Sequence record: SRR2962707_2549
Strand: one strand, 5' to 3'
Length of the DNA: 20,000 bases
Position numbers and translations under genes: made by a program. Shown here piece by piece: positions 2,807 through 20,000 of the stretch. Numbering within the stretch: the stretch's first letter is position 1; each line of letters begins with the position of its first letter. Under the pieces are notes generated by a model. The model had not been told where the DNA came from, made no database searches, and saw only the letters and a list, made by a program, of their open reading frames with translations.

Positions 2807-2829
2807 AAATGTCTCCAAATATTTTGAAT

Positions 2830-2855: not shown

Positions 2856-2867
2856 TAGTTTTTAATA

Positions 2868-2882: not shown

Positions 2883-2890
2883 AGTATTGC

Positions 2891-2919: not shown

Positions 2920-2937
2920 CTATTGAATGAAGAAAAT

Positions 2938-2971: not shown

Positions 2972-2988
2972 AATAGGCCAATCCTGTG

Positions 2989-3168
2989 ATGCAAAACGCT
3001 GATAACGTTGTTAAATCTGTAGAAAAGTCCGGTCAAAATAATCGGCAATCTTCCCATATCTCTAGCGCTGCGCTGTTCAAAGGCACGCGTGAAATTTCTA
3101 TTGAGCATAATGGTGAGTTCTACCGGCTAAAAATCACGCGCCAGGACAAGCTTATTCTCAACAAATAA
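2989..3168 (+). CDS. hmuP: Hemin uptake regulator HemP/HmuP
   Basis: About 59 aa with ISSAALFKGTREISIEHNGEFYRLKITRQDKLILNK and the diagnostic C-terminal KLILNK; first gene before hmuS. The start could be GTG 2986 or ATG 2989. Confidence 0.93.
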   Translation: MQNADNVVKSVEKSGQNNRQSSHISSAALFKGTREISIEHNGEFYRLKITRQDKLILNK

Positions 3169-3185
3169 GAGAGTTTGATAAGAGT

Positions 3186-4232: not shown

Positions 4233-4246
4233 TGGGTAGTATAAAA

Positions 4247-5119: not shown

Positions 5120-5123
5120 TCCA

Positions 5124-6221
5124 GTGTTAGATAATTCGCGTCTCATTTTAAACGGACCTGTTCCAGCGCCGACCCATTGGTCACGTGACCAATGGGCCAA
5201 GTTGGCATTGCCGCTGCTTGCCTTGTTGCTCGCAGTTTCTGCGTTCATTTCGCTGACAGCAGGTGCCTCTGATAGCTCGGCAATAAACGTGCTTCGCAAT
5301 TATCTTGGTTTTTCCAGTGATGGTGACGTTACAGGACGCGATTTTCTAATCATCATGAATATCCGCATGCCGCGGGTTGTTATGGGCATGTTTGTTGGCG
5401 CAACCTTGGCGGTTTCAGGCGCTATAATGCAGGGCGTCTTTAGAAACCCATTGGCTGATCCGGGGCTTGCTGGCGTGTCGGCAGGTTCAGGTCTGGGCGC
5501 GGCTACGATTATTGTGCTGGGCGGTTCGCTCGCAGCGCCTTTTATGGCTTTTATGGGCTTCTTAGCACTGCCATTGGCCGCATTTATTGGCGGGCTTTTG
5601 ACCACCTTAATGCTCTATAGTTTGGCAACGCAGCAAGGGCAGACATCCATCGCGACGATGCTGCTCGCAGGCATCGCCCTTGGCGCTCTGGCGATGGCGC
5701 TAACGGGCAGTCTTGTTTACATTGCTGATGATCGTGAATTGCGAGACCTCACATTTTGGGGGCTTGGTTCTCTGGCTGGTGCCAACTGGCTGAAGGTCAC
5801 TACAATTGGCTGTGTTCTGTTTATTTCCTTGCTCATTCTGCCGTTTATGGCACGAGGGCTCAATGCGCTAACGATGGGCGAAGCGGTTGCTTATCACATG
5901 GGTGTGCCCGTTGAGCGCTTGAAAAAGAGCGCCATCGTTCTTGTCGCGGCCATGACTGGCGCAGCTGTCGCAGTCAGCGGCGGTATTGGCTTTGTAGGCA
6001 TTGTTGTGCCGCATATTTTGCGTCTTTCAATTGGACCCGACCATCGTTTTCTCTTGCCTGGTTCTGCACTTCTTGGCGCATCCTTGCTGGCTCTCGCCGA
6101 TGCCGTCGCGCGTACAATCGTTGCGCCTGCCGAATTGCCGGTCGGGATTATTACCGCGCTATTTGGTGCACCATTTTTTCTTTGGATTTTGCTGCGCCGC
6201 CGCAACATTTTGGACAATTAG
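5124..6221 (+). CDS. hmuU: Hemin ABC transporter permease (FecCD family)
   Basis: IRMPRVV, QGVFRNPLADPG, GGIGFVGIVVPH, ELPVGIITALFGAPFF; multiple TM helices. Start position uncertain. Confidence 0.93.
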   Translation: MLDNSRLILNGPVPAPTHWSRDQWAKLALPLLALLLAVSAFISLTAGASDSSAINVLRNYLGFSSDGDVTGRDFLIIMNIRMPRVVMGMFVGATLAVSGAIMQGVFRNPLADPGLAGVSAGSGLGAATIIVLGGSLAAPFMAFMGFLALPLAAFIGGLLTTLMLYSLATQQGQTSIATMLLAGIALGALAMALTGSLVYIADDRELRDLTFWGLGSLAGANWLKVTTIGCVLFISLLILPFMARGLNALTMGEAVAYHMGVPVERLKKSAIVLVAAMTGAAVAVSGGIGFVGIVVPHILRLSIGPDHRFLLPGSALLGASLLALADAVARTIVAPAELPVGIITALFGAPFFLWILLRRRNILDN

Positions 6222-6230
6222 GAGAACTGC

Positions 6231-7046
6231 ATGTTTGAACTAACTGCGAATGATCTGGTCGTTCATTATGGGCGGCGCATGGTTTTGAAAAATGCCAATT
6301 TCACGGCCCAAGCGGGAGAGATAACCGTTATTGCCGGCCCTAACGGGTCTGGAAAATCAACGCTGGTGAAAGCAATTTGCGGCGAAATTAATTATCGCGG
6401 CGATGTCAAAATCAACGGCTCCAATATTGCCAAAATTCCAGCTTGGCAGCTCGCGGGAATGCGGGCAGTTCTGCCGCAAGAAACCAAGGTTTCATTTCCA
6501 TTTACAGTCGGCGAAATCATACGCCTTGGATTGAATGCAGGTGGTCGGTCAACTCAGACGAACGATCTGATCGAAGCCGCGCTGGAAAAGGTTGGCCTTC
6601 AAGGATTTTCTCAAAGATTGCTGCCTCAGCTTTCTGGCGGCGAGCGCCAGCGTGTTCAATTGGCCCGTGTGCTTTGCCAAATTTGGGATCCTGTTGGCGA
6701 ACTGGGACCGCGCTGGTTGATTATGGATGAGCCAGTGGCCAGCCTTGATGTTCATCACCAAATTTCTTTGATGGAACTTGCGCGTGATTATGCTGCAAAA
6801 GGTGGCGGTGTGATCGCTGTCATGCACGATCTCAATTTAAGCGCGCTTTATGCCGAAAAGATTGTGCTTATGGATGATGGTGTCATCGCGGCCAGTGGCG
6901 ATCCTCAGTCGGTGTTCACTGCATCAACACTCTGCAATGTATTTAACTGTCCGCTCCAGCCTAATTGTTCGCCGCAGGAGGGAACTTTTATCCTTCCTCA
7001 TTCTGCTGTCGGCAATTCAGCAAACATCGCTATTGCGGCTGAGTGA
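6231..7046 (+). CDS. hmuV: Hemin ABC transporter ATP-binding protein
   Basis: Walker A GPNGSGKS, signature LSGGERQRVQLARVLCQIW, Walker B LIMDEP, H-loop VMHDLNL; AGGAG SD. Confidence 0.95.
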   Translation: MFELTANDLVVHYGRRMVLKNANFTAQAGEITVIAGPNGSGKSTLVKAICGEINYRGDVKINGSNIAKIPAWQLAGMRAVLPQETKVSFPFTVGEIIRLGLNAGGRSTQTNDLIEAALEKVGLQGFSQRLLPQLSGGERQRVQLARVLCQIWDPVGELGPRWLIMDEPVASLDVHHQISLMELARDYAAKGGGVIAVMHDLNLSALYAEKIVLMDDGVIAASGDPQSVFTASTLCNVFNCPLQPNCSPQEGTFILPHSAVGNSANIAIAAE

Positions 7047-7064
7047 ATAGGAAAGGTTAAAGCC

Positions 7065-7493
7065 ATGTTTTATCGGACAATGAAGCTCACATTATTTTTG
7101 CTGCTCATGCTAACTTTCAGTTCTGCTTTGGCGCAAGAAGATGCGCCCAAGATCAATGTGGAGTTCAATCGGCTGACTGACACGCCCAATGGGTGCCGCT
7201 TCACTTTTGTGGTCTCCAATCAGCTGACACAGAGCGTTTCTAAAGCGGTGATTGAACTTGCCTTTTTTAACACGGAAGGTTTGGTCGAGCGGCTGACAGC
7301 GCTCAACTTTGGATCGCTTGCGGCAGGACGCGCCAGCGTTAAGCAATTTGAATTATCCGGCCCCCAATGCGGCAACTATTCACGACTTCTGATCAATGCA
7401 GTGAAAGCATGTGACGGCCTAACCGATGGCGTGAAGGCCTGCGATGCGGCGCTTGCCTTGTCCAACAAAACAGAAATTAAATTTGGAGTTTAG
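7065..7493 (+). CDS. Secreted/periplasmic hypothetical protein with 4 Cys, encoded between hmuV and exbB
   Basis: Signal peptide (ALA-QE), beta-rich pattern, Cys44/102/116/126, SD-like GGAAAGG, 2-nt gap to exbB. Confidence 0.85.
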   Translation: MFYRTMKLTLFLLLMLTFSSALAQEDAPKINVEFNRLTDTPNGCRFTFVVSNQLTQSVSKAVIELAFFNTEGLVERLTALNFGSLAAGRASVKQFELSGPQCGNYSRLLINAVKACDGLTDGVKACDAALALSNKTEIKFGV

Positions 7494-7495
7494 AA

Positions 7496-8185
7496 ATGGC
7501 GTCAGCTTTAGAGAATATGATTTCACTTCTTAAATTAGGCGGCCCCGTTGTTACTATTATCGCATGTGTGTCGATTATTGCGCTCGCGCTAATTCTTGTA
7601 AAAGCATGGCAGTTTTGGATTTGCGGCGTTGGTCATCGTCGTAGCGCACGCGCTTTGCTGGCGCAGCTACGTGCGGGGCAGGTGACACCTAGTAAACTTT
7701 CCAATGCGCAACAGCGTAATCCAGCGTCAAGTGCGGTCGCCTTTGCATTCTCGCTTAAAAAACGAGGCTTTAAAAAAGCTGAAATTGAGGAGGAGGTTGG
7801 TCGTCACGCGGCAGTTAAAATGCATGAGCTGCAAAGCGGACTGCGGCTTTTGGATGCGATTGCACAACTAGCGCCCTTGATGGGACTGTTTGGAACGGTT
7901 CTCGGGATGATTGACGCATTTCGGCAAATGCAGGGCGCAGGATCAAATGTTGATCCATCTTTGCTGGCTGGCGGCATATGGGTTGCGCTCTTAACAACAG
8001 CTGCGGGTCTGGTTGTGGCGATGCCGGTTTCGCTTGTCCTGACCTTGCTTGAAACACGCATTGAAAGTGAACGCGTTGCTATCGAAACACTCGTCAGCGA
8101 AGTCTTATCTCCTGTGTTAAACGCACAAGCGCGCGAAGACGTTGTTAAAGAGTTCCCTTCACGGAGCGCAGTTCATGCGCATTAA
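7496..8185 (+). CDS. exbB: MotA/TolQ/ExbB proton channel family protein
   Basis: GGPVV N-terminal TM, IAQLAPLMGLFGTVLGMIDAF, LAGGIWVALLTTAAGLVVA. Confidence 0.92.
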   Translation: MASALENMISLLKLGGPVVTIIACVSIIALALILVKAWQFWICGVGHRRSARALLAQLRAGQVTPSKLSNAQQRNPASSAVAFAFSLKKRGFKKAEIEEEVGRHAAVKMHELQSGLRLLDAIAQLAPLMGLFGTVLGMIDAFRQMQGAGSNVDPSLLAGGIWVALLTTAAGLVVAMPVSLVLTLLETRIESERVAIETLVSEVLSPVLNAQAREDVVKEFPSRSAVHAH

Positions 8186-8555
8186 TATTGCGCAGCGGGA
8201 GCGGCGGCGTTTGTCGGTCACTTCGTTGATTGATATTGTTTTTCTGTTGCTGCTGTTTTTTATGCTGACATCATCATTTTCGCATTATTCTAAAACGCAG
8301 ATTACATCGGCGCAAAGCGGTGGCGGTGCCAGCAGTGAGCACCCAGTTATTCTCGCCAAACCCTTAAAAGATGGTTGGCAGATCAACGGTCAATCAGTAA
8401 GCGATGGCGATATTGCTGGCTTTCTCCACCAATATTCAGACAGGGGTTTAGACCGCATTTTTCTGAGCGTCTCAGAGGATTTAAGCACGCAGCGGATGGT
8501 CGCTGCGCTAGAGGAATTGCGCCAGCTAAAATTCAAAGTCACGGTGTCGAGATAA
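8175..8555 (+). CDS. exbD: Biopolymer transport protein ExbD/TolR, copy 1 (canonical TM Asp)
   Basis: TSLIDIVFLLLLFFML; ATG 8175 with GGAG SD, overlapping the exbB end. Confidence 0.9.
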   Translation: MRINIAQRERRRLSVTSLIDIVFLLLLFFMLTSSFSHYSKTQITSAQSGGGASSEHPVILAKPLKDGWQINGQSVSDGDIAGFLHQYSDRGLDRIFLSVSEDLSTQRMVAALEELRQLKFKVTVSR

Positions 8556-8558
8556 GCC

Positions 8559-8957
8559 ATGATGCAAATTGAACGGCGGCGAAAACCGCGGCAGATGGAA
8601 AACACCATTGCGCTCATTAACATTGTTTTTCTGATGCTTGTTTTTTTCATGATTGCCGCAACAATCGCGCCAGCTTCCGCGCCGAAGGTCAATCCAATCA
8701 CAACGCAGGATGCAAAAACCACCACGCATGGCTTGATGCTTGGCGTTAATGTTGATGGCGTCCTGATTTATCAAGGAGAGGAAATTTCAGCTCAAGCCTA
8801 TCTCGCCAGTTTGGAGAGTGGGGCTGGAGATAGCCCTGAAATTCGCCTTTTCCCCGACCGTGATCTGCCTGCGATAAAACTCTTGGATATTCTGACCGCG
8901 CTTAAGGATGCAGGCGGCGAAAATATAACCATTATCAGCGAACGGACGCAGCAATGA
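8559..8957 (+). CDS. exbD: Biopolymer transport protein ExbD/TolR, copy 2 (TM Asp replaced by Asn)
   Basis: IALINIVFLMLVFFMI; C-terminal IRLFPDRDLP...LKDAGGENITI fits the ExbD periplasmic domain. Confidence 0.88.
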   Translation: MMQIERRRKPRQMENTIALINIVFLMLVFFMIAATIAPASAPKVNPITTQDAKTTTHGLMLGVNVDGVLIYQGEEISAQAYLASLESGAGDSPEIRLFPDRDLPAIKLLDILTALKDAGGENITIISERTQQ

Positions 8958-9829
8958 AATTGACTGCATTCCACTGGGCTGGTGCACTTATATTTTCAGT
9001 GTCTGCCCATTTTTTTGCTGCATCATTTATGGGTGAAAAGCCCGATCAAATGTTGATTGAAGGCAGCGCGGGTGATGTCGCGGTTGTGATGCTCGGCGAT
9101 GCTGCCGCAGATGCAATTGCTGCAGGTAATCCGTCAGATACGCTTGACGCGCAGGACGTGGCCGAGACTTTGCAAGAAAATGTGCAAGAAACCGAAACTG
9201 CGCAGGAACCCGTTGTACAAGAAAATGTGTTGGTGTCTATAGAACAGGCGGTTGAGCCCGCAGCGCTCGAACAAGTGTCTGCAGAGGCACCAAACGAAGT
9301 GGAAGCTGTTGAAGAAGAGGTGCTGGCTGTAGAGACATTGCCAGTGCCTGCCGCTAGGCTGCAAAAATCGGAGGTTACGTCTAAAGAAACAACGAAAAAA
9401 CCAGCAAAGAAAGAAACCAAAAAGGCACCTAAAAAAACTACCGCAAAGAAAAAGGCTGGTAGCGGCGGTACGTCTAATACAAATACGCAAAAGAAGGCAG
9501 CAAAAGGCAATGTTGCGCCTAAAAGCAGCCAAGCAGGAAACGCTGCGGCTTCAAATTATCCAGGAAAGGTCGCTCGGCGCCTAAGCCGTTCGCTTCGCTA
9601 TCCAAAAAGCGCGCTTCGGGGAAGCCGAACCGGTCAGGCAAATGTAAGTTTTGTTGTTACAAAAAATGGCCAAGCAAAGTCCATTCGCATTATAGCCAGT
9701 TCAGGAAATCCGGTGCTTGATGAAGCAGCTGTAGATGCAGTTAAACGCGCTTCTCCATTTCCACCTATTCCTGAGGACGCGGGGCGTGACCAATGGCAAT
9801 TCACCGTGCCGATCTATTTTAAACGATAG
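8954..9829 (+). CDS. tonB: Energy transducer TonB
   Basis: N-terminal TM with SxxxH (SVSAH), Glu-rich then Lys-rich spacer, C-terminal domain LRYP...G...VSFVV...SSGNPVLDEAAVDAVKRASPFPPIP; ATGA overlap with exbD2. Confidence 0.92.
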   Translation: MKLTAFHWAGALIFSVSAHFFAASFMGEKPDQMLIEGSAGDVAVVMLGDAAADAIAAGNPSDTLDAQDVAETLQENVQETETAQEPVVQENVLVSIEQAVEPAALEQVSAEAPNEVEAVEEEVLAVETLPVPAARLQKSEVTSKETTKKPAKKETKKAPKKTTAKKKAGSGGTSNTNTQKKAAKGNVAPKSSQAGNAAASNYPGKVARRLSRSLRYPKSALRGSRTGQANVSFVVTKNGQAKSIRIIASSGNPVLDEAAVDAVKRASPFPPIPEDAGRDQWQFTVPIYFKR

Positions 9830-9900: not shown

Positions 9901-10782
9901 CTATAGCGATATGCCATATTTGCCAGATGCGGTCGAAAGACGGGTGTGTACTTCATCAAAGAACTCATCCTTTGGCGATAGGCTCGGTCTCACAATGCCG
10001 ATTTTACGGAACAGCTGAGGTTCACCAAATGGCACAGTGACAAGCTCGGCCTTCTCATTGCGCTGAGCGATTTCAGGAACGATGCCAACACCGAGTCCAG
10101 ATGCCACGCACTCGACAATCGTCGAGATCGTATCAATTTCAGCGGTGTCTTGCGGCACGATGTTTAGGCGCGAAAGTTCCGTGTCAATCATATTGGCAAG
10201 CGGAACATTCGCACAAAAGCGGACAAATGGATAAGTTTCTAGCATTTCACGCGCTGGCATTACGGGTGTTCCAGGTGGGGCAATGACCACAAGTGGCTCG
10301 CGAATAAATGGTGTCCATTTCAAAGATTTTGGTATGCCGAGGTGTTCGGCCACAATCGCAATATCAAGCCTGCTTGCTAGAACATCGCTAATCAGCGAGT
10401 TCGACATGCCGACACGAAGCTTGATTAAGAGTTCGGGATAGGTCTCGCGCAGAGAAATAATTGCGAGTGGCAAGAGGCCAATCGTGCTCGTGCGCACAGA
10501 ACCAATGGTCAGTGTGCCGGTGGATCTTTTCCCTTCAATGACGCTTTGCGTGTCATGAACCATACGCAAAATTTTGCGCGCCGATTCCAAAAGCTGAAGC
10601 CCTTGTAAAGTAAGCGAAGGAGGGCGTGTTTCACGATTGAAAAGCGGCGCTCCAACTTCCGTTTCCAAGGCCAGAATCTGTTGGCTGACCGCGGACGGCG
10701 TAATGTGAACCACTTCGGCTGCTCGCGCGAAGGTTCCGTGTTCGGCAATAGCCACCAATGTCTTTAGCTGACGTGTATCCAT
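9901..10782 (-). CDS. LysR family transcriptional regulator
   Basis: MDTRQLKTLVAIAEHGTFARAAEVVHITPSAVSQQILALE...LFNR helix-turn-helix; 293 aa; divergent from the catabolic cluster. Confidence 0.95.
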   Translation of the reverse strand: MDTRQLKTLVAIAEHGTFARAAEVVHITPSAVSQQILALETEVGAPLFNRETRPPSLTLQGLQLLESARKILRMVHDTQSVIEGKRSTGTLTIGSVRTSTIGLLPLAIISLRETYPELLIKLRVGMSNSLISDVLASRLDIAIVAEHLGIPKSLKWTPFIREPLVVIAPPGTPVMPAREMLETYPFVRFCANVPLANMIDTELSRLNIVPQDTAEIDTISTIVECVASGLGVGIVPEIAQRNEKAELVTVPFGEPQLFRKIGIVRPSLSPKDEFFDEVHTRLSTASGKYGISL

Positions 10783-10794
10783 AATTAATCCAGT

Positions 10795-10809
10795 TTATCT
10801 TCATCTTAA
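10795..10809. promoter_or_regulatory. Candidate LysR recognition site
   Basis: TTATCTTCATCTTAA (TTA...TAA dyad containing T-N11-A), 13 nt upstream of the lysR start in the divergent intergenic region. Confidence 0.45.
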
Positions 10810-10916
10810 GATCAAATTTATTCTCTTTTCTGAAGCAACGCTATGGGTAATATATGTTTTTGCAAGGGATGCAATCCCGACACGTGCCTAAACCATTGGG
10901 AGGAGAATTGGCAATT

Positions 10917-11912
10917 ATGCGAAAGATTTTAGTAAGTGGGCCGGAAATCGCGTCCGCTGCAATCCGTATTGCAGAAAAATCAGGCTATGAACTCGTCTTT
11001 GCGCCAGCCTATTCAAATTCCGATGCTTTGGTGGAGTTGATGCGCGAACATGACCCAGTTGGCGTGGTTTCACGCGCAGGCAATTTTGGGGCAGGGCCAA
11101 TCAGTGCGGGGCGTTCACTGCGTATTATTTCTAAGCACGGCGCTGGCGTCGATAACATCGATGTTGAATGCGCAACGCAGCATCAGATCCAAGTAATCCG
11201 AGCGACTGGCGCAAATGCTGTCTCGGTGGCTGAACATGCCGTTGCCCTTGCCATGGCCTCAGTGAAGCGCTTGCGCACACTTGATGGCACCTTGCGCCAA
11301 GGTAAATGGGAAAAGATGGCCTTTGTTGGGCGTGAATTAGCCGGCATGCGCGTTGGTCTCGTGGGCGCTGGCGCAATTGCGCAAGTGGCAGCGCGGCTTT
11401 TCCGCGGACTTGGACTTGAAGTCGCCGCCTATGATCCATTTGCTAATCAATCTGTTTTTACCCAGATGGGCGCTGAACACTTCGCTGATTTAGACAAAAT
11501 GCTGCACACGGTAGATATCGTTAGCCTGCATTGCCCGCTAGTGCCTGAGACCCACCATTTGATGAATGAGCGGACAATCGCGCTGCTGCCAAAGGGGAGC
11601 TATATTATCAATGCTGCGCGGGGCGGGCTTGTTGATGAGCGTGCCCTTCTTGATGCTTTGGCAACGGGGCAGATTGCGGGCGCTGGCCTTGACACTTTAG
11701 AGGTTGAGCCACCTGAAGGCGATAATCCACTCTTTGATGTGCCCGAACTAATCGTGACGCCGCATGTCGGCGCTTCGACCGCTGAAGCAATGATGCGCGT
11801 GGCCGCTGAGGCTATGAACGGCATCATAGATTTCATCGAAGGGCGCGAAATTCCTTCCAGCCGACTTGTGAATAAAATTGACAGCGAAATCGCTGCGAAC
11901 CCTACTGCATAA
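10917..11912 (+). CDS. D-isomer-specific 2-hydroxyacid dehydrogenase (SerA-like, no ACT domain)
   Basis: KHGAGVDNID, NAVSVAEHA, Rossmann GAGAIA followed by YDPF, SLHCPL, INAARGGLVDE, EVEP, TPHVGAST. The GGGAGGAG SD favours ATG 10917 over the track start at 10854. Confidence 0.9.
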   Translation: MRKILVSGPEIASAAIRIAEKSGYELVFAPAYSNSDALVELMREHDPVGVVSRAGNFGAGPISAGRSLRIISKHGAGVDNIDVECATQHQIQVIRATGANAVSVAEHAVALAMASVKRLRTLDGTLRQGKWEKMAFVGRELAGMRVGLVGAGAIAQVAARLFRGLGLEVAAYDPFANQSVFTQMGAEHFADLDKMLHTVDIVSLHCPLVPETHHLMNERTIALLPKGSYIINAARGGLVDERALLDALATGQIAGAGLDTLEVEPPEGDNPLFDVPELIVTPHVGASTAEAMMRVAAEAMNGIIDFIEGREIPSSRLVNKIDSEIAANPTA

Positions 11913-11927
11913 TTAGAGGATATACCT

Positions 11928-12608
11928 ATGACGATCGGAAACCGCATATTAAGTGCTAAACGCAAAGCCAGCAAAGAAATGGTTGATGCGTTCAAGCAAT
12001 TGCCCGTAGCCAATGTCAGCGATTGTATGTCGCGTATGTCTGCTGCCGGTCCACAAATTAGACCGATGCATACGAGCGGAGTGCTCGCCGGTCCAGCATT
12101 GACTGTCGTAACGCGCCCAGGCGACAATCTTTTTATCCATAAGGCCATAGATATGGCTGAACCCGGCGATGTGATCGTTGTCGATGGTGCTGGCGATTTG
12201 ACAAATTCTCTCATGGGCGAGCTGATGCTTGCCTATGCAATAAAACGCGGGGTTGCTGGCTTTGTGTTGAACGGCGCAATCCGCGATATTGATGAATTTC
12301 GTTCTATGAATCTGCCTGTTTATGCCGCCGGCGTAACGCATCGCGGTCCATACAAAGTTGGCCCTGGCGAAATTAATGTTACGATTGCGATAGATGGAAT
12401 GACGATCGAGCCCGGTGACTTAATTCTTGGTGACAACGATGGCGTATTGTCTGTGCCATATGACGAAATGGAAACAGTGCTTGCAGCTACGCAGAAAAAA
12501 AGCGAAGCAGAGAAAAAGCAAATGGGTGATATTCTTAATGGCACAGTTGATCGCAGCTGGATCGATATTAAATTGCGTGAAACTGGGTGCATTTTCCCAA
12601 GCAACTAG
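11928..12608 (+). CDS. RraA family protein (4-hydroxy-4-methyl-2-oxoglutarate aldolase / oxaloacetate decarboxylase-like)
   Basis: VANVSDCM, GPALTV..RPGDNL, PGDVIVVDG, GELM, GAIRD, PGDLILGDNDGV; GAGGA SD. Confidence 0.9.
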   Translation: MTIGNRILSAKRKASKEMVDAFKQLPVANVSDCMSRMSAAGPQIRPMHTSGVLAGPALTVVTRPGDNLFIHKAIDMAEPGDVIVVDGAGDLTNSLMGELMLAYAIKRGVAGFVLNGAIRDIDEFRSMNLPVYAAGVTHRGPYKVGPGEINVTIAIDGMTIEPGDLILGDNDGVLSVPYDEMETVLAATQKKSEAEKKQMGDILNGTVDRSWIDIKLRETGCIFPSN

Positions 12609-12620
12609 CGCAATGATTAA

Positions 12621-13820
12621 ATGTTAGCAGCACTCCGAGACCGCAAACTTCAAGGCTATCTCGCTGGAAATCTGCTCTCAATCGTTGGAACATGGGCGCA
12701 GCGTGTCGTCGTTTTCTGGATCGCTTGGGAGATGACCGGCTCCACTGCGGTGCTCGGCGTGTTGGCAGCGCTGGACATGGCGCCCGCTGTTCTGGCAGCG
12801 CCGATAGCTGGAGCGCTCGCAGATCGCCAGCCTGCACGAAAGCTAACGATTGTTGTGCAACTATTTTCGATGTTGCCGCCGATTATTTTGGCCGGATTCG
12901 CAATCGTTGACCAAATTAGTCTGCCTCTTCTGATGGTGCTGACACTGTGTACCGGTTTGCTCAGTGGCTTTGATCATCCGCTGAGATTGCTACTTGTCGG
13001 CAGCATTACAGGGCAGGCGCAGGTATCTAACGCCGTTGCCTTAAATTCCACCGTATTTAATATTGGTCGTATGATTGGTCCGGCCTTTGGTGGTTGGATG
13101 ATATCGCAGGGGCATACCGCTATCGTTTTTGGTTTAAACGCTGCGACCTTTCTCGCCTTCGCTATTTTGCTTTCGCTGCCCGGAATGTTTCGCGAAGATG
13201 CGATGCCAAAATCAAATGGTAACAAATTTAGTCTTGGAAGCTGGGTTAGCGTCTTCAAACAAATGGAACCGTTAGATCGACGGTTGTTTCTATATTTCGC
13301 TTCAATCGGACTCATGATGAGACCTGTATTTGAGTTGCTGCCTTCACAGGCGGCGCGGTTCACTTCAGAGGTTTTTAGCGAAGCTCAGGCCTATTCCTTG
13401 CTCACCTCGACACAAGGTTTCGGCGCATTGCTTAGTGCCATCCTGACTTCAATATTGCTCAGCAGGATCAATGGTAAGTTCATCGCCGTCTATGCAGGTC
13501 TTGGTGCTACTTTAGCAATTCTGGCCTTCCTATTTAGTACGCCGCTTAGCGTCGCTTTAGTGGCACTTGCTACCCTGTCGGGAGCCGTATTGATGAACGG
13601 TATTTCAACGCAAGTGATGTTGCAGACGCGCTTGCCGCGTGAGGTGCGGGGGCGGGCACTTGCTATCTATACAATGACGCTTCGTGGAGCGCCGGCGCTT
13701 GGTGCATTTCTAGCCGGTGTTCTGGGCGGATATGTATCCCAAGTGACTTTGTTTAGTGCAGCTGCAGTCCTCATGTTCGTCTGGGGTGTTAGCTTTTTGC
13801 GAAATCAGGCGCGCGCTTGA
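12621..13820 (+). CDS. Major facilitator superfamily permease (MFS_3 / EntS-like)
   Basis: GNLLSIVGTWAQRV...W..WEMTGS, AGALADR, NAVALNSTVFNIGRMIGPAFGG, LQTRLPREVRGR; about 12 TM helices. Confidence 0.9.
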   Translation: MLAALRDRKLQGYLAGNLLSIVGTWAQRVVVFWIAWEMTGSTAVLGVLAALDMAPAVLAAPIAGALADRQPARKLTIVVQLFSMLPPIILAGFAIVDQISLPLLMVLTLCTGLLSGFDHPLRLLLVGSITGQAQVSNAVALNSTVFNIGRMIGPAFGGWMISQGHTAIVFGLNAATFLAFAILLSLPGMFREDAMPKSNGNKFSLGSWVSVFKQMEPLDRRLFLYFASIGLMMRPVFELLPSQAARFTSEVFSEAQAYSLLTSTQGFGALLSAILTSILLSRINGKFIAVYAGLGATLAILAFLFSTPLSVALVALATLSGAVLMNGISTQVMLQTRLPREVRGRALAIYTMTLRGAPALGAFLAGVLGGYVSQVTLFSAAAVLMFVWGVSFLRNQARA

Positions 13821-13909
13821 TTAAGAAAAACTTGATGTAATCGAAATTATTTATCGCTTTTAGTTAGTCTGACTTTTTGTATATTAATTTCTCAACGGGA
13901 GGAAACATA

Positions 13910-14860
13910 ATGAAAATTCTTAAAGCAACACTACTCGCTGGCTCAATGAGCCTAATCGCAACGTCCGCATTTGCGGAATTCCCAGAACGTGACATCGAAC
14001 TACTAGTCGGCTTTTCAGCCGGTGGTGGTACTGATGTAATGGCGCGTACACTGGAACCGTTCTTAGAGAAGTATCTCGGAGACGGCACAAATATCGTTAT
14101 CAAAAATATTCCAGGTGCAAGTGGCCAGATTGCCGTGACGCAGGTGGCGCAGTCAGAAGCCGATGGCTACACAATCGGCACTTACAACTTGCCGGGCGTG
14201 ATGGCGCGTACATTAGACCGTAAAGCTGACTATACAGCTGATAGCTTCACCTACCTTGCCAATGTTGTTGATGATCCAAATGTGATCGTAACACCGCAAA
14301 CCAGCTCTATTTCAAGCATGTCTGAGTTGATTGAAAAAGCCAAAGCTGACCCAGGTTCAATCACAATGGGTATTTCAGGCTTGGGCGGCGATGACCATTT
14401 CATGTTCATTGCACTTCAAGAAGCAACTGGCGCAGAATTCACACTTGTGCCCTTCGGTAGCTCAGCACCGACACGCACAGCTCTTATGGGCGGCCATGTT
14501 GCAGCAGGTATCCTAAACGTATCTGAGGTTGCTGGTTTTGAAGAATCTGTTCGCGTGCTTGGCGTCGCCTCTGAAGAACCTTCAGAATATGCGCCTGACG
14601 TTCCAACATTGAAATCCCAAGGCATAGACATAACCAATGGTTCTATGCGCGGGTTTGTTGCTCCAGCGAACCTACCGGATGATGTTCGCGAGAAGCTGCT
14701 CAACGCATTTAGTAAAACTTTTGAAGATCCAGAATTTCAAAAAGCGATGCGTGCTACATCCAATCCAACAAGGCTTTCTCTTGGTGAGGATTTCCGAGTG
14801 CTCAATAATTCTCAACTTACTTTCGCTAAGAAGGTTTGGGAAACTTCTCCCTGGAAATAA
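13910..14860 (+). CDS. tctC: Tripartite tricarboxylate transporter substrate-binding protein (TctC/Bug family)
   Basis: Signal peptide (AFA-EFP), FPERDIELLVGFSAGGGTDVMAR, NIPGASG, ADGYTIG, DVPTLKSQG; GGGAGG SD before ATG 13910. Confidence 0.93.
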   Translation: MKILKATLLAGSMSLIATSAFAEFPERDIELLVGFSAGGGTDVMARTLEPFLEKYLGDGTNIVIKNIPGASGQIAVTQVAQSEADGYTIGTYNLPGVMARTLDRKADYTADSFTYLANVVDDPNVIVTPQTSSISSMSELIEKAKADPGSITMGISGLGGDDHFMFIALQEATGAEFTLVPFGSSAPTRTALMGGHVAAGILNVSEVAGFEESVRVLGVASEEPSEYAPDVPTLKSQGIDITNGSMRGFVAPANLPDDVREKLLNAFSKTFEDPEFQKAMRATSNPTRLSLGEDFRVLNNSQLTFAKKVWETSPWK

Positions 14861-14866
14861 AATTAT

Positions 14867-14892
14867 GCCTACCGTCCTTTGGGGCGGTAGGC
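14867..14892 (+). other. Intra-operon stem-loop after tctC (mRNA-stabilising or attenuating)
   Basis: GCCTACCGTCC-TTTG-GGGCGGTAGGC, an 11-bp stem with one G-U pair and no following U tract. Confidence 0.7.
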
Positions 14893-14943
14893 CAAAATTC
14901 CCAAAAATATCACTAGATAATTCGCTGTATCTTGGGGGGTCCA

Positions 14944-15402
14944 ATGGATACCAAAGGTCTTAGTACTCGGTTGTGGGCAGAAGTCGCCTTCGCCGGTTTC
15001 ATCATTGTTGCAAGCGCTTTGCTGTTGTTTTCGGCGTTGGATTTGCCGACGATGTCGGCGCTTTTGCCCGTTGCGATGCTCGGTTGTCTAATTGCTCTGG
15101 GTGTTGCGCTCATTTTCGTTCAGTTCATGCGCAGACAAAGCGTTGCAGATAAGGATCTGAAAGTTGGTGATCCGGCGCGCGCTTTAGGAGCATTTAGCGC
15201 TATCATTATCTACACATTAGCCGTTCAATATATCGGCTTTTATATCTCTACAATCATAATGGTACCCACGGTCGCTTGGTTGTTCGGCTTTCGCAATATT
15301 CGCGGATTGGCTCTCGCCACTGTCATTTTCGTTGGCGGTACCTTCCTTATTTTTTCGATGCTGATGGGACAGCGCTTCCCTGAAGAAATCTTTTTACGCT
15401 GA
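14944..15402 (+). CDS. tctB: Tripartite tricarboxylate transporter small permease (TctB family)
   Basis: About 152 aa, 4-5 TM helices, IGFYIST and C-terminal FSMLMGQRFP; lies between tctC and tctA. Confidence 0.88.
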   Translation: MDTKGLSTRLWAEVAFAGFIIVASALLLFSALDLPTMSALLPVAMLGCLIALGVALIFVQFMRRQSVADKDLKVGDPARALGAFSAIIIYTLAVQYIGFYISTIIMVPTVAWLFGFRNIRGLALATVIFVGGTFLIFSMLMGQRFPEEIFLR

Positions 15403-15414
15403 AGAGAAAAGCTT

Positions 15415-16917
15415 ATGTATAGTAACTTACTCGACGCACTGCCTGAGGTTCTCACCCTTGCGAATTTTGCCGCTGTCGTGATCGGCGTGCTTTCGGGCAT
15501 CATTGTGGGCGCGCTTCCAGGTTTGAGCGCTACCATGGCTATATCAGTTCTCATTCCTTTCACTTATGCGTTTGAACCGCTTGTCGCGCTTGGCCTCATG
15601 GCAGGCATCTATAATGGAGCGATGTATGGCGGCGCTATTCCGGCTGTTTTGCTGCGCATTCCCGGCACCCCTGCTGCGGTAGCGACGAGCTTTGATGGCT
15701 ATCCTATGGCGCAGCAAGGTCGCGGCGGCTACGCGCTGCAAGTTGCAGTCGTATCATCATCAATCGGCGGTACAGCCAGCGCGCTAGCCCTTATGCTTCT
15801 TGCGCCACCATTGGCACAATTGACATTGCTTTTTGGTCCGTCAGAGATTTTCTGGATCGCGGTTTTTGCGATGACAAGTATTGTCTTCCTGCTTGGCGGC
15901 AATCCTATTAAAGGCCTTATTAGCGCCTCTTTCGGTATCTTGATATCGTTGGTCGGTTCGGACGTGATTACCGGATATGACCGTTTCACTTTTGGCAACC
16001 TCGAAGTCCTTGATGGCATCAATATCGTTGTGTTGTTGGTCGGACTTTATGCGCTTCCGCCGGTTATTGACTTGTTGCAGAAAGAGCATGGCACAGATAA
16101 ATCAGGTGCCCGCGATCTAGTGACGGAAAGCCTTTGGAAAAATCTTCCTGGGATGCGCCGATTTACCAAAACATGGGCGCGCGGCTCTATTATTGGTATT
16201 TTTGTTGGGATATTGCCCGGTGCAGGCGGATCAATGGCTGCATTCCTCAGCTACAATGAAGCGCGCCGCGCCTCTAAAAATCCTGAAGAATGGGGCAAGG
16301 GCGAGCCTGAGGGCGTTGCGGCGGCTGAAACGGCAAACAATGCAGACACTGCTGCAGCTCTGATTCCTGCTTTGACGCTTGGGATTCCAGGAACTGCGGT
16401 TGCTGCTGTCATGCTTGGCGGGCTATTAATTCACGGCTTGCAGCCCGGACCAATGCTGTTTCGCGAAAATCCAGACATCGTGTTTGGATTTATGTGGCAG
16501 TTCTTGTTCGCGGCTATTTTGCTAATTTTCCTTGGCGGATCACTTGCGACAAACAATTTTGCCAAAGTGCTTCGTTTGCCGCGCCCACTGCTCGGCTCGA
16601 TTATTATTGCGTTGATGCTGATCGGTGTTTATTCAATCCATGGACGCATGTTTGACGTCTATCTGATGCTCGGCTTTGGCTTAATTGGCTATGTTATGGA
16701 CAAGCTCGATTATCCGCTGCCGCCTGTTGTGCTTGGCGTTATTCTAGGTGGTTTTGCTGAACAGAACTTGCGCTTGGCCCTGCGCATTGGGCGCGGTGAC
16801 TGGTCGTATCTGTGGCAGAATACAACCAGCATAGTGCTTATAGCTATGACTGTGTTCGTGATCGTCGGTCCAATGGCAATGAAGCTATGGAAGCGCCAAA
16901 AAAGCCAGCAGGGCTAA
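15415..16917 (+). CDS. tctA: Tripartite tricarboxylate transporter large permease (TctA family)
   Basis: GALPGLSATMAI, YGGAIPAVLLRIPGTP, DGYPMAQQGR, GILPGAGG, AETANNA, LTLGIPG, GLQPGP; 500 aa. Confidence 0.95.
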   Translation: MYSNLLDALPEVLTLANFAAVVIGVLSGIIVGALPGLSATMAISVLIPFTYAFEPLVALGLMAGIYNGAMYGGAIPAVLLRIPGTPAAVATSFDGYPMAQQGRGGYALQVAVVSSSIGGTASALALMLLAPPLAQLTLLFGPSEIFWIAVFAMTSIVFLLGGNPIKGLISASFGILISLVGSDVITGYDRFTFGNLEVLDGINIVVLLVGLYALPPVIDLLQKEHGTDKSGARDLVTESLWKNLPGMRRFTKTWARGSIIGIFVGILPGAGGSMAAFLSYNEARRASKNPEEWGKGEPEGVAAAETANNADTAAALIPALTLGIPGTAVAAVMLGGLLIHGLQPGPMLFRENPDIVFGFMWQFLFAAILLIFLGGSLATNNFAKVLRLPRPLLGSIIIALMLIGVYSIHGRMFDVYLMLGFGLIGYVMDKLDYPLPPVVLGVILGGFAEQNLRLALRIGRGDWSYLWQNTTSIVLIAMTVFVIVGPMAMKLWKRQKSQQG

Positions 16918-16948
16918 GCCCGATAACAAGTAAATAATTAAAGCTAAT

Positions 16949-17021
16949 CTATCGCGGTAGTCTTTTGATTTATGTGCCGAACTTGGCCTAAATCATTAGA
17001 ACGCCGCGATAGTTTTGTTTT
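16949..17021 (+). terminator. Long imperfect hairpin plus T tract after tctA
   Basis: CTATCGCGG (16949-16957) / CCGCGATAG (17004-17012) outer stem with inner TGATTTA/TAAATCA and GCC/GGC stems, followed by TTTTGTTTT. Confidence 0.7.
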
Positions 17022-17151
17022 GTAGGCCCAAAATGTTCGCCGCTGATCGATTTATACTACGTATAAATTTCACAAGCTCCATATTTGTTGGCATAAATAT
17101 GTAAAGACCCTTCAAATTTAAATAAAATCATAAAATATAAAACTTTATATA

Positions 17152-17201
17152 TTAACCAATAAATGAATTGGTTATTAAAATATTGGTTAAAAATAGATTA
17201 A
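17152..17201. promoter_or_regulatory. Inverted repeats and a CtrA-type box upstream of the oxidase operon
   Basis: TTAACCAATA (17152-17161) / TATTGGTTAA (17181-17190) is a perfect 10-bp inverted repeat, with an extra ATTGGTTA at 17167-17174. 17186-17201 reads TTAA-TCTATTT-TTAAC on the minus strand. Confidence 0.5.
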
Positions 17202-17265
17202 TGCGGTAATTGTGGAGAATAAAATATGTAGTCAGTAGAAGACTAGCGAAAAGGGGGGCTATTCG

Positions 17266-17571
17266 ATGGTCGATAAAGCAAAAGTGTATAGCAGAATTGC
17301 TAATGGTGTTGCTGGAGTGGGCGCTATACTTACAGGCTTGGGTGTTGCGAAGATTGCCGCCCACATTTCAAATCAAAATGGTCTGGACTGGTCTATCTGC
17401 GGTACGGGGCAATTCACCGACGCAACGTTTTTGACCAATAGTGCGATCCACTGTTGGGGATGCGCCGCTGTTGCGCTTGGCCTAGCGATGTTAGCCGCCT
17501 CGATATTTACCCCTCATTCCAAATTCTTTGCGCCCTTCCATGCGCAGCAAGCAGGGAGCGCAGCACAATGA
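17266..17571 (+). CDS. Small two-TM membrane protein with ICG...HCWGC motif
   Basis: 101 aa with hydrophobic segments at about 11-32 and 62-81; His33, Cys45, His62, Cys63, Cys66; AGGGGGG SD; stop overlaps the next ATG (ATGA 17568-17571). Confidence 0.75.
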   Translation: MVDKAKVYSRIANGVAGVGAILTGLGVAKIAAHISNQNGLDWSICGTGQFTDATFLTNSAIHCWGCAAVALGLAMLAASIFTPHSKFFAPFHAQQAGSAAQ

Positions 17572-20000
17572 TTGACGGCACATCAAAAGATATTCAGGGC
17601 GATGGCGAGTGGGGCGAAGTTCTCGACTGGACCATCATACCAATTCATTCAATCGTTCTGCCTGATGGAAAGCTTCTGTCCTTTGGTACCGACCAAAACG
17701 CCAATCAAGTCGGTCAGTTTGTTTATAGCCTCTGGGACCCAGAAACCAACGAAACGAAGATTTTGCCCAATACCACTGGCGTGAATATCTTCTGCTCAAA
17801 CATGGCAATTGATCCGGTCACTGGCAATGTCATCATCATGGGTGGTGACCAATATGAGTATCTTGATGGTCCACAATATGGCGGCATCACTGATGCGGTT
17901 GTCTTTGACTATAAAACTGAAACAATCCGTGACGCGACAGACCAAGATGGCAATTTGACGGACTTGGCCTATGGGCGCTGGTACGGCTCTGTCATCACTT
18001 TGAGCAATGGCGAAATCCTCATGGCCGGTGGCCGTGGTGACGACTATACTGGTTCGACCATTCCAGAAATTTACAATGCGCAGACCGGTTTTCGTTCGCT
18101 GACAGGCGCTGAGATTGTAGATATTCGTGATAATGATACGGGGGTCGGTCCCTATTGGTATCCGCATCTTTGGCAGGCGTCAGATGGCGATGTTTGGTTT
18201 GTAGAAGCCAATGGCGGCAGCGGCGGCCGAGGCGATATGTACCGCATGGATGTGACTGGCCTTGGCTCGGTTACAAAAGTCGGCCAAGTGCCTTTTGACT
18301 CACGCGAAAGCGCGTCATCCATCATGTATCAAACCGATAAGGTGCTAGTTACAGCTAATGATGGCTGGGTATGGTCTGGCGATCTGTCGACAGAAGTTCC
18401 TTCGTGGGAGCGGGCGTTTTATATGCCCGATAGCAACGATGCTTCGCAAAGTTCATCACGCTCACAAGGCATGTTTGTCCTTCTACCAGATGGCCGTGTA
18501 TCGATCGTGGGCGGCACAGATCCCAATGGCGATGATGCGTACAAATTAGAAAATGCCCAGCTAACGGTAGTTACTTGGGATCCGAAAAATCCAACTGCGC
18601 CGCTTGAAGTATCTGCCGAGCAGAGCTTAGCGCGATTATATCACTCATCTGCGCAATTGTTGCCCGATGGCACAATCTGGTCTGGCGGCGGCGGGGCACC
18701 TGGTCCTCTGGAAAACAAAAATGCAGAAGTGCTCACGCCTTCGTATCTTTATGATGAAAATGGCGATCTAGCCGATCGACCACAAATCGTTGATGCGCCA
18801 ACAAATATAGATGCAGGCACAACCTTCCGCATGACTGTTGATGAGGCCAGCACTCTATCGATGGTAAGTGTTGTCAAATCGGGTGCAGCGACACACGCGC
18901 GCAATTCAGACGCACGGTTTTTAGAACTCGACTACGCAATTATTGATGAGAACACGATTGAGGTAACTGCGCCGGCATCTAACGAGATGATCCCAGGCCT
19001 CTATATGCTCTACACCGTCGGCACCGATGGTGTGCCATCTGAAGCAAGCATGCTCGGTGTTAATATGGCCACCTTGGTGGACACCGGTTCTGTCGGCAAT
19101 GATGTGACGACCGTCTACAATATTGATGACGAACAGATCGACGGCGCATTTGCGCTATCTGCAGAAGTGCGTTTTGATGATGTGGATGGATCAGCCAATC
19201 AGATCATTTTCGATTTTGGAAATACGGCAGGTGCAGATTCTATTAGCCTTTCGCAAATTGGCACAACGAACGATTTGGAATTCTCAGTCACTATCGATGG
19301 ACAGACCTTTAGCATCATTGCGCAAAACGCAATTGTTGAAGGTGAATCGGCGATATACCGTGTTGGTATTGATCCAGATGGTATCATGCGCATCGCAAAA
19401 AATGGCGATTTGTTGGTCGAAAGCGAGACGGCTGATCCAAGCCGCGTGCCTGCAGATGTAGACCGGCTAAATTACCTCGTCGGTGAAAGCACAGAAGCGG
19501 GAAGCTCAGAACTCATCGGCTTGATCCGCAATCTTAAGATCGCAAATTATGGTGAAATCGACGAGCTTGATGGCGCCAATGCACTGAGCCCATGCGCGGT
19601 CACAGGCGAGGCGGCTTGTCTTTGCAGTAAACTGGTTCCTGGTGTTGATGATACCGAAGGCAATGATGCACCAAAAATCTTTGCCGACTATTCAGTGATC
19701 GCTGGCATGGTGAGCGAAGTTCCGCACAATGTGCAAGGTGAGAATACAGCGCTATTAGCAACGAACGGTGTTGTTGCATTTGCCGATGCAGATACAACGG
19801 ACACACATACAGCGAGCTTTGTTCCCAAGGATGGCGGCGTTGGTTATCTGGGCACATTCGCGCTTGGTCTGCCGACTACAACTGAATGGGCAATTACCGG
19901 CTCAGTCGCATGGACATTTAAGGTGCCTGACTCTGCACTGGTCAATTTGAACACCGGTGAGAGCATTACACAAAGCTATGACATCACCGTTGATGACGGC
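17568..20000 (+). CDS. Large multidomain copper-radical oxidase (galactose/glyoxal oxidase-like Kelch propeller plus DUF1929) fused to LamG-like and VCBS-type domains; 3' end outside the window
   Basis: Not in the ORF track because it has no stop in the window. Hand translation is open for 811 codons from ATG 17568 (GGGAG SD): MIDGTSKDIQGDGEWGEVLDWTIIPIHSIVLPDGKLLSFG...NIFCS...RWYGSVITLSNGEILMAGG...WYP...RLYHSSAQLLPDGTIWSGGGG...AEVLTPSYL...RPQI...GAATHARNSDAR...PGLYML...GVPS...VRFDD...IFDFGN...NDAP...FADADTTDTHT...GSVAWTF...GESITQSYDITVDDG. Confidence 0.9.
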   Translation, partial: MIDGTSKDIQGDGEWGEVLDWTIIPIHSIVLPDGKLLSFGTDQNANQVGQFVYSLWDPETNETKILPNTTGVNIFCSNMAIDPVTGNVIIMGGDQYEYLDGPQYGGITDAVVFDYKTETIRDATDQDGNLTDLAYGRWYGSVITLSNGEILMAGGRGDDYTGSTIPEIYNAQTGFRSLTGAEIVDIRDNDTGVGPYWYPHLWQASDGDVWFVEANGGSGGRGDMYRMDVTGLGSVTKVGQVPFDSRESASSIMYQTDKVLVTANDGWVWSGDLSTEVPSWERAFYMPDSNDASQSSSRSQGMFVLLPDGRVSIVGGTDPNGDDAYKLENAQLTVVTWDPKNPTAPLEVSAEQSLARLYHSSAQLLPDGTIWSGGGGAPGPLENKNAEVLTPSYLYDENGDLADRPQIVDAPTNIDAGTTFRMTVDEASTLSMVSVVKSGAATHARNSDARFLELDYAIIDENTIEVTAPASNEMIPGLYMLYTVGTDGVPSEASMLGVNMATLVDTGSVGNDVTTVYNIDDEQIDGAFALSAEVRFDDVDGSANQIIFDFGNTAGADSISLSQIGTTNDLEFSVTIDGQTFSIIAQNAIVEGESAIYRVGIDPDGIMRIAKNGDLLVESETADPSRVPADVDRLNYLVGESTEAGSSELIGLIRNLKIANYGEIDELDGANALSPCAVTGEAACLCSKLVPGVDDTEGNDAPKIFADYSVIAGMVSEVPHNVQGENTALLATNGVVAFADADTTDTHTASFVPKDGGVGYLGTFALGLPTTTEWAITGSVAWTFKVPDSALVNLNTGESITQSYDITVDDG

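Follow-up and report, generated by a model that had tools for sequence, protein, structure and literature searches.

A family of small HCWGC membrane proteins encoded ahead of copper-radical oxidase and fixLJ genes, with a possible role in serving oxygen-using copper enzymes

The stretch of DNA analysed here (20,000 nucleotides of sequence record SRR2962707_2549; hereafter, the window) carries near its end a small open reading frame (ORF) for a membrane protein with the motif His-Cys-Trp-Gly-Cys (HCWGC), directly followed by the gene of a galactose-oxidase-like copper-radical oxidase. The firm result of the analysis is that the HCWGC proteins form a conserved, unannotated membrane-protein family with two fixed genomic positions, one ahead of such oxidases and the other ahead of genes for FixL-like kinases. 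The features of the locus are listed below by position, all on the forward strand; fractions of 17 refer to the family alignment described further on.

17150..17190: AT-rich promoter region with a candidate operator (consensus matches only)
17253..17258: Shine-Dalgarno (SD)-like G-run, 7 nt 5′ of the ATG of the small ORF (read from the sequence)
17266..17571: gene for the small HCWGC-family membrane protein, ATG start, 101 aa (ORF reading, homologues and synonymous strain variants)
17296..17361: predicted transmembrane helix 1, residues ~11–32, with invariant Gly19 and Gly26 and with Lys or Arg at position 29 in 14/17 (alignment, AlphaFold2 and charge counts)
17362..17445: predicted periplasmic loop, residues ~33–60, with His33 (14/17) and invariant Cys45 (alignment and charge counts)
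17446..17508: predicted transmembrane helix 2, residues ~61–81, with invariant Gly72 (alignment and AlphaFold2)
17449..17463: His62-Cys63-Trp64-Gly65-Cys66 at the periplasmic end of helix 2 (17/17, and present in the member from genome G905 too)
17509–17568: non-conserved, predicted cytoplasmic tail of 20 residues after helix 2
17553..17558: AGGGAG, SD-like site for the oxidase within the small ORF, 9 nt before the oxidase ATG
17568..17571: ATGA, overlap of the oxidase ATG (17568–17570) with the TGA stop of the small ORF (17569–17571) (read from the sequence)
17568..20000: galactose-oxidase-like copper-radical oxidase, visible as its first 811 aa up to the window end (domains, homologues and structure matches)

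A preliminary description of this locus, made from the letters alone, had defined the small gene by the ORF itself, His33 (codon 17362–17364), Cys45 within I-C-G (codon 17398–17400), the HCWGC motif and two hydrophobic segments around a loop, and all of these lie where it had placed them. The overlap of the stop with the oxidase start and the oxidase SD site inside the small ORF are likewise present, and HCWGC, read from the sequence, is indeed no CxxCH haem-c site, as the description pointed out. The N-terminus of the small protein is basic (K4, K6 and R10), and the loop, with hydrophobic stretches on both sides, is polar and acidic. Upstream of the ORF lies a spacer of ~350 bp, with a GC content of 16–26% across 17050–17250. 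The spacer holds sigma-70-like hexamers (TTAACC-18-TAAAAT, 17152–17181), and promoter-like sites were found by consensus twice, against 2.4 expected. Within 17150–17190, a TTAACCAAT/ATTGGTTA(A/T) half-site occurs 3 times, with nested palindromes, and overlaps those hexamers, the sole forward promoter-like ones upstream of the small gene; judged by this arrangement, the array looks like an operator for some regulator. The FixK/Fnr box TTGA-N6-TCAA has no match in the window and none in 15 loci.

Contigs of two closely related strains in public sequencing runs allowed us to ask how the small ORF varies in those parts of the window that they cover (17155–17205 lies outside the cover). All 6 listed variants inside the ORF, 5 from one contig of run X3 and 1 from run X2, are synonymous changes at third positions, and all would be non-synonymous if read in either of the other forward frames. 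The chance of 6 changes all falling at third positions is (1/3)^6, or ~0.001. Variants from a single low-depth contig may be sequencing errors; if random, however, these should show no preference for third positions. In the adjoining oxidase, the same comparison gave 25 synonymous changes out of 28 listed. Among 3 family members linked to FixL, non-synonymous differences per site (pN) range from 0.16 to 0.25 and synonymous differences (pS) from 0.66 to 0.75, with dN/dS of 0.08–0.17 at a dS near saturation. Given the synonymous strain variants and the low dN/dS in relatives, the small ORF is a real gene under protein-level selection. The opposite reading, that it is a chance open frame in the 5′ leader of the oxidase, could point to a collection of 5.8 billion protein clusters, from which the ORF itself is missing and in which a word-index search with the window protein as single query gave no match. 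This reading is excluded: homologues with an invariant motif are known, the variants and dN/dS are those of a protein, GC rises from the 16–26% of the spacer to 48–59% over the ORF, and the ORF has an SD-like site of its own.

Exhaustive phmmer search of 1.84 billion representative proteins returned 21 matches at E <= 0.001, among which 10 are small proteins (86–111 aa; E-values from 1.6e-9 to 9.9e-4) with two hydrophobic segments, one loop cysteine and HCWGC in common. The remaining 11 are long repeat proteins with 5–17 matched stretches and were set aside as compositional: such giants (P0121, P0123, P0124, P0128 and others; 500–3467 aa) align with the loop part of the query, and the 3 that we inspected (P0124, P0128 and P0138) contain Cys/Gly/Thr-rich tandem repeats. 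A motif scan of metagenome contigs revealed 7 loci with genuine members (L006–L009 and L011–L013), L007 and L009 being 98% identical; a further locus, L010, with a partial or doubtful match, was left out of the alignment and of the context counts. A back-translated HCWGCP pattern had 3 matches in 401 genomes of the phylum, against 3 in the reversed control; 1 of the matches was real (in genome G905) and 2 were due to chance. A profile search of the word index retrieved 5 proteins, all found previously. The genome sets are samples centred on G001, the genome of locus L001 (see below), and the profile scans scored only 12 candidates per genome, so that members can be missed; within this scope, no member was detected in 401 genomes of the order of G001. 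The sole profile match in 401 genomes of its class, L005, does not have the two-helix architecture and was discarded as spurious. A tblastn search of a plasmid collection gave no match.

The family is rare and almost exclusively metagenomic, and the only species-representative genome with a member, G905, offers a possible entry point for experiments. Gene callers often miss the small gene, as indicated by the absence of the window ORF from the 5.8-billion-cluster collection. The source records of the homologues are metagenome proteins without names, in clusters of 1–4 members. The window protein has no match in Pfam or NCBIfam, no family is named in any homologue record, and searches of the PDB by sequence (E <= 10) returned nothing. 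Foldseek found no structure with E <= 0.001, its matches being generic helical hairpins, and the ESM Atlas contributed only clusters of unnamed hypothetical proteins, with recognition below the mark. In the literature searched, judged partly from titles and abstracts, we found nothing relevant on the HCWGC motif, type I-secreted copper radical oxidases, a small membrane protein upstream of fixL, or bacterial RTX/DUF1929 galactose oxidases.

The conservation of the ICG-type cysteine and of HCWGC, on which the preliminary description had staked its proposal, is borne out by the phmmer matches and an alignment of 17 sequences (A2), in which Gly19, Gly26, Cys45, His62, Cys63, Trp64, Gly65, Cys66 and Gly72 are invariant; His33 and Lys/Arg29 are each present in 14/17 sequences and Pro67 in 13/17. 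Neither cytoplasmic tail is conserved, and no column after Gly72 is. HCWGC stands ~30–40 residues from the C-terminus, immediately before helix 2. AlphaFold2, run on the alignment, yielded a helical hairpin (helices 4–36 and 53–88; mean predicted local distance difference test score of 70). Summed over the 17 sequences, Lys and Arg number 31 before helix 1 and 43 after helix 2 versus 10 in the loop, where there are 36 Asp and Glu. By the positive-inside rule, these counts place both ends in the cytoplasm and the loop, most probably, in the periplasm, in agreement with the topology assumed in the preliminary description, so that the conserved chemistry would lie at the outer face of the inner membrane. 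The candidate ligands there are the His-Cys-x-x-Cys at the mouth of helix 2, the loop residue Cys45 and His33, with which helix 1 ends. Gly19, Gly26 and Gly72, all invariant and all inside the helices, would fit close helix packing. Because the periplasmic face is kept and the tails are not, it is probably the mature protein that performs the function, at the membrane surface on the periplasmic side. We considered and rejected two other arrangements. A cleaved signal peptide in place of helix 1 is not compatible, as judged by eye, with the residues before His33 (L, Q, S and P at −1 in several members), which misfit a signal-peptidase site, and a cytoplasmic Fe-S or zinc cluster disagrees with the charge count, which puts the loop outside.

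The oxidase encoded downstream contains Kelch, Glyoxal_oxid_N and GO-like_E_set (6.7e-17) domains, and LamG-like and VCBS modules follow the catalytic domain. It matches solved galactose oxidase structures at ~1e-34 and the NCBIfam model of GlxA at 4.1e-34, but with 118 bits against a cut-off of 800, and hence is not a GlxA equivalog. Its F-C, W-Y, Y-H and T-H positions align to galactose oxidase, where, following the fungal residue assignment, we take them to be the cross-link Cys and Tyr, the axial Tyr and the two His copper ligands. Cys76, Tyr139, Tyr358, His359 and His443 are invariant in 40 homologues. With all catalytic residues kept, the oxidase is, by its sequence, a competent copper enzyme. 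The oxidase clade is rare as well, being found in 2 of the 401 sampled genomes of the class, one of which is G001 itself. The oxidases of L003 (3386–7903) and L008 (6318–9191) have a LamG-like module of ~180–190 aa ahead of the propeller, whereas the window oxidase and its closest relatives start with the propeller, without a preceding LamG-like module.

In all 9 loci with known context, the small gene is located directly upstream of, and co-directional with, the next gene. In 5 of the 9 (the window, L006, L007, L009 and L008), the next gene encodes a galactose-oxidase-like protein; the small proteins of these loci are 33–41% identical, and the oxidases beside them are 47–53% identical between lineages (77% between L006 and L007). 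That the gene order has been kept at such divergence indicates that the small gene and the oxidase are functionally linked, and the pair looks like a conserved, undescribed two-gene unit. In the other 4 loci (L011, L012, L013 and G905/L036), the next gene encodes a FixL-like PAS histidine kinase (best NCBIfam match FixL, 2e-122). In L012, L013 and G905, the kinase is followed by a FixJ-type regulator and a single-receiver protein, and ccoN, ccoO, ccoP and ccoG diverge on the other side of the small gene; L011 is a 1.1-kb contig in which only the start of the kinase is visible. With the window oxidase as a query, no oxidase homologue was found in G905. The undescribed two-gene module inferred in the preliminary description is thus supported, in that the pairing with a gene for an AA5-like copper enzyme recurs in other lineages. 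Its further suggestion of a partner dedicated to the oxidase does not hold for the family, given that 4 of the 9 loci have the gene ahead of fixL-fixJ, 3 of them beside ccoNOQP, the genes of the cbb3 haem-copper oxidase. The overlap behind the translational coupling that it proposed is present in the window, where the spacing is −4 nt, but is not kept in the other loci, where gaps are 38–93 nt.

Since both contexts centre on oxygen-using copper enzymes, we propose a copper service role: the HCWGC protein would provide a Cu(I) site at the membrane surface that serves such enzymes after their translation. We favour this reading tentatively, as a plausible account that is nonetheless open to serious doubt. 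According to it, the protein would be a mature two-helix hairpin in the inner membrane with both ends in the cytoplasm, and the Cys3-His(-His) cluster (Cys45, His62-Cys63-x-x-Cys66 and, usually, His33) would bind a soft metal, most likely Cu(I). Three cysteines with one or two histidines form a classic soft-metal site. The client would be the copper-radical oxidase in the window and the cbb3 oxidase, under FixLJ, in the sister branch. With the small gene first in the unit, the protein would be made together with, or just before, its client, and would act post-translationally, by donation or insertion of copper, rather than by regulation. There are precedents for such assistance in both contexts: GlxA, a bacterial radical copper oxidase, needs the copper chaperone Sco in order to mature (PMC4736821), and the cbb3 oxidase requires SenC and PccA (PMC8456105).

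Several observations weigh against this proposal, and its main difficulty is geometry, for neither a type I secretion substrate nor the cytoplasmic FixL would meet a periplasmic loop. The window oxidase has no Sec or Tat signal and starts directly with the propeller, and the same Met begins its closest homologues, which are at most 56% identical to it. Repeats-in-toxin (RTX) repeats (PF00353) are present in 10 of 120 listed oxidase homologues, with the closest ones ending in Gly/Asp-rich repeats. In L008, genes for an ATP-binding cassette (ABC) exporter (609 aa), an HlyD-type adaptor (459 aa) and a TolC-like protein (477 aa) lie divergently beside the small-gene/oxidase pair (1021–5660). Taken together, the lack of a signal peptide, the RTX-bearing homologues and this secretion trio indicate that the oxidase, the C-terminus of which lies beyond the window, is most likely a type I secretion substrate. 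Export as such, which had been assumed in the preliminary description, is probable, but by a route that would not normally lead through the periplasm, where the loop sits. Type I substrates as a rule bypass that compartment unfolded, and the case for simple copper loading there is thereby weakened. In the fixL context, the small gene is co-oriented with fixL, which encodes a cytoplasmic haem protein, and not with ccoN. Furthermore, the three closest oxidase homologues in species genomes (L001–L003) have no small gene upstream, profile searches of the three genomes found no match to the HCWGC family (0/3), and in L001 and L002 no small partner lies downstream of the oxidase either; the oxidase clade thus does not need the small protein in general. 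The binding of metal by the HCWGC cluster is a prediction, as are the delivery of copper to the oxidase, its activation and its anchoring that the preliminary description put forward; periplasmic copper sites consist mostly of Met and His, exposed cysteines in that compartment are prone to oxidation, and a disulfide role would be equally compatible with periplasmic cysteines.

The geometric difficulty might be overcome in two ways. Hand-over in the periplasm would need the N-terminal catalytic domain of the oxidase to linger there. Retention modules of LapA-type adhesins stay in the periplasm in this way, and the catalytic domain of the oxidase, being N-terminal, would be the last part out in type I secretion and might conceivably stay behind. 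Alternatively, the action could be indirect, with the small protein keeping a pool of Cu(I) at the membrane. Both suggestions are speculative. A modelled complex of oxidase residues 1–500 with the small protein scored 0.01 (mark 0.34; controls absent) and speaks neither for nor against binding.

The same cysteines could instead form a membrane thiol-disulfide module, in which CxxC and the loop cysteine would exchange disulfides with a periplasmic partner or quinone, in the manner of a minimal DsbB/VKOR or CcmH-type unit, and would adjust oxidative folding or redox signalling to the oxygen conditions in which the neighbouring genes are expressed. Such a role would be in keeping with an invariant, Trp-flanked CxxC where a helix meets the periplasm, with the additional invariant cysteine of the loop, with the oxidising environment of the periplasm and with the relation of both genomic contexts to oxygen. 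However, the number of cysteines is odd (three) and that of helices only two, the invariant His62 and the frequent His33 are better explained by metal ligation, no gene for a thioredoxin-fold or Dsb protein is conserved beside the small gene in the 9 loci, and neither sequence nor fold matches DsbB/VKOR. We regard this explanation as quite unlikely.

A different function is suggested by the shape of the kinases. The FixL-like proteins (383 aa; L012 6300–7451 and L036 8135–9286) cover positions 117–480 of the 485-position rhizobial FixL model and are without its N-terminal part, and the small gene sits just upstream, in the place where an N-terminal extension would be encoded. The small protein might then be a membrane tether or partner that holds soluble FixL, or the N-terminal domain of the oxidase, at the membrane, replacing the N-terminal membrane region found in some FixL proteins. 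This is improbable: the cytoplasmic tails that would be needed for contact with FixL, or with the oxidase before secretion, are not conserved, the small protein has no match to the FixL model (0 families), and a fully secreted protein cannot be held across the outer membrane.

The gene order itself is compatible with yet another explanation, namely, that the small gene is a cis-acting copper- or redox-sensing leader akin to CutF, CruR or CopL. Membrane insertion of the small protein would sense periplasmic copper and set translation or transcription of the next gene, so that the oxidase, or FixLJ and thereby the cbb3 oxidase, would be made only at the right copper supply. That the small gene always comes first, in the same direction, ahead of two unrelated kinds of gene (9/9 loci) is the pattern of a portable leader. 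In the window, the two genes overlap by stop and start codon, and a local hairpin (−15.5 kcal/mol) can form that pairs the oxidase SD site within the small gene. CutF, CruR and CutF-like genes, as presented in the consulted parts of the literature, provide a precedent, and both contexts would be explained without any contact of the small protein with a type I substrate or cytoplasmic FixL. Conversely, the hairpin is no more stable than those of shuffled sequences (z = −0.47; 54 of 200 shuffles give a fold as good or better), the junction RNAs of 7 loci do not differ from shuffles (z from −0.16 to +0.86), and the gap to the next gene varies from −4 to +93 nt. The family has no homology to DUF2946, the family of the known leaders (17 members against Pfam; hhalign probability of 0.1%), and in place of the invariant R-x-P-P arrest motif of the DUF2946 set it has no conserved residue past Gly72. 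Given the position of HCWGC, so near the C-terminus and followed at once by the second membrane helix, the motif would probably still be in the ribosome or translocon at the end of translation; it could hardly be exposed on the nascent chain, and the full site would exist only in the released protein. The invariant helix glycines also suggest a folded mature hairpin. A nascent-chain mechanism of the CutF type is thus less likely, although the HCWGC protein may have a regulatory role of some other kind. Overall, we consider the leader explanation unlikely, if by no means negligible.

The second place of the small gene, between ccoNOQP and fixLJ, would be an initial sign that copper or thiols act on the FixLJ oxygen cascade. 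A more far-reaching reading than the one we favour would make the HCWGC proteins a new class of membrane micro-proteins with a Cys3-His Cu(I) site at the outer face of the inner membrane, which render the output of oxygen-dependent copper enzymes conditional on periplasmic copper through two wirings, one directly ahead of the secreted radical oxidase and the other ahead of fixLJ, where copper supply would enter the cascade that drives the copper-requiring cbb3 oxidase; the mechanism would have arisen independently of the DUF2946 leaders and would use no arrest peptide; a class defined in all these respects is a doubtful prospect, with the chances clearly against it. For the oxidases, the issue is how the metal is acquired. 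For signal-less RTX-type oxidases of marine Alphaproteobacteria, no copper route is known to have been described, and a conserved partner of ~100 aa with a cluster of three Cys plus His would be a small, mutable handle on it. In the consulted part of the literature, copper acquisition by bacterial copper-radical oxidases is known only for GlxA of Streptomyces, via Sco (PMC4736821).

The rest of the window contains a haem-uptake cluster at 686–9829, with the following genes.

686–2818, reverse strand: TonB-dependent receptor
3186–4232: HemS/ChuX
Between HemS/ChuX and ExbB: periplasmic binding protein, FecCD permease and ABC ATPase
7496–8185: ExbB
8954–9829: TonB

The region 9901–16917 encodes a LysR regulator (minus strand), a D-2-hydroxyacid dehydrogenase and a major facilitator superfamily transporter, followed by three ORFs (13877–16917) that we take, from their translations, to be a putative TctC-TctB-TctA tripartite tricarboxylate transporter. 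Right after the tctA stop lies a 33-nt imperfect inverted repeat (16940–17021; 76% complementary, 16-nt loop), which has no T-run and so was not called a terminator.

Comparison with known systems brings out several partial likenesses of the HCWGC proteins. DsbB and VKOR have four helices in a bundle, a quinone site and loop cysteines in pairs; the HCWGC proteins share with them CxxC at the periplasmic end of a helix and a loop cysteine, but match them neither in sequence nor in fold. MerF, MerT and MerE have 2–3 helices in ~80–115 aa, with cysteines at the periplasmic surface that catch a thiophilic metal and relay it to a Cys pair on the cytoplasmic side. The HCWGC proteins are similarly small, with membrane helices and surface cysteines; however, they have no conserved ligand in mid-membrane or on the cytoplasmic side and no sequence match to the Mer proteins. 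Sco/SenC, PCuAC/PccA, Cox11 and ECuC resemble the HCWGC proteins in having an inner-membrane anchor facing the periplasm and Cys/His ligands (in Sco, CxxxC plus His), as well as in being tied to copper oxidases, a radical copper oxidase included. They differ in having a globular thioredoxin- or cupredoxin-like domain on a single anchor, whereas an HCWGC protein would be a bare two-helix hairpin with its ligands at the membrane surface. None of the 17 members has a Pfam match to any of these chaperones, and there is no NCBIfam match to Sco/SenC, PCuAC or Cox11.

The closest functional parallel is with the DUF2946 leaders. In the consulted parts of the literature, CutF of Rhodobacter, CruR of Bordetella and CopL of Xanthomonas are DUF2946 proteins, which control the next gene through ribosome arrest at a proline motif near their C-terminus, this arrest being changed when copper binds to the chain during synthesis; CutF, exported and 118 aa long, contains CxxxC and affects cutO, the gene of a multicopper oxidase, only in cis, CruR is a CxxC protein encoded by an upstream ORF, and CutF-like genes head diverse metal-related operons (PMC8456105, PMC9973294, PMC9426467, bioRxiv 10.1101/2025.02.05.636593). 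Neither a copper-radical oxidase nor fixLJ is among the neighbour classes named for CutF-like genes in those parts. DUF2946 is common in Alphaproteobacteria and occurs in 14 of 81 genomes of the order of G001. As judged by profile comparison, the HCWGC family is not a member of it: the Pfam model (PF11162) has no match at E <= 1 in the window protein or any of the 17 members, and hhalign of our alignment with an alignment of 9 DUF2946 proteins (A4; all from genomes of that order and above the Pfam cut-off) gave a probability of 0.1% and an E-value of 0.51 over 15 columns. R107, P109 and P110 (R-x-P-P) are invariant in the DUF2946 alignment, whereas the HCWGC alignment has only scattered prolines in the tails. 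Unlike CutF, CruR and CopL, to which no homology is detectable, the HCWGC proteins have no conserved PPP or R-A/G-P-P arrest motif at the C-terminus and carry a second transmembrane helix right after the cysteine motif. An RNA stem-loop that shields the next ribosome-binding site, a further feature of the DUF2946 systems, may have a counterpart in the SD-pairing hairpin of the window, but neither this hairpin nor the junction folds stand out from shuffles. In both groups, another conserved cysteine precedes the cysteine motif: it lies in I-C-x-x-x-G before CxxxC/CxxC in the 9 DUF2946 sequences and in I-C-G ~17 residues before CxxC in the HCWGC family. What the two groups have in common, as a functional resemblance only, is a length of ~100–120 aa, a place as the first gene ahead of a gene for a cuproenzyme or copper homeostasis, an N-terminal hydrophobic segment for export or anchoring and a cysteine motif exposed, in the HCWGC proteins by prediction, to the periplasm. 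The HCWGC family thus resembles, without belonging to, the small Cys-motif proteins tied to cuproenzyme genes, and may overlap with one of the 29 clusters of the CutF papers.

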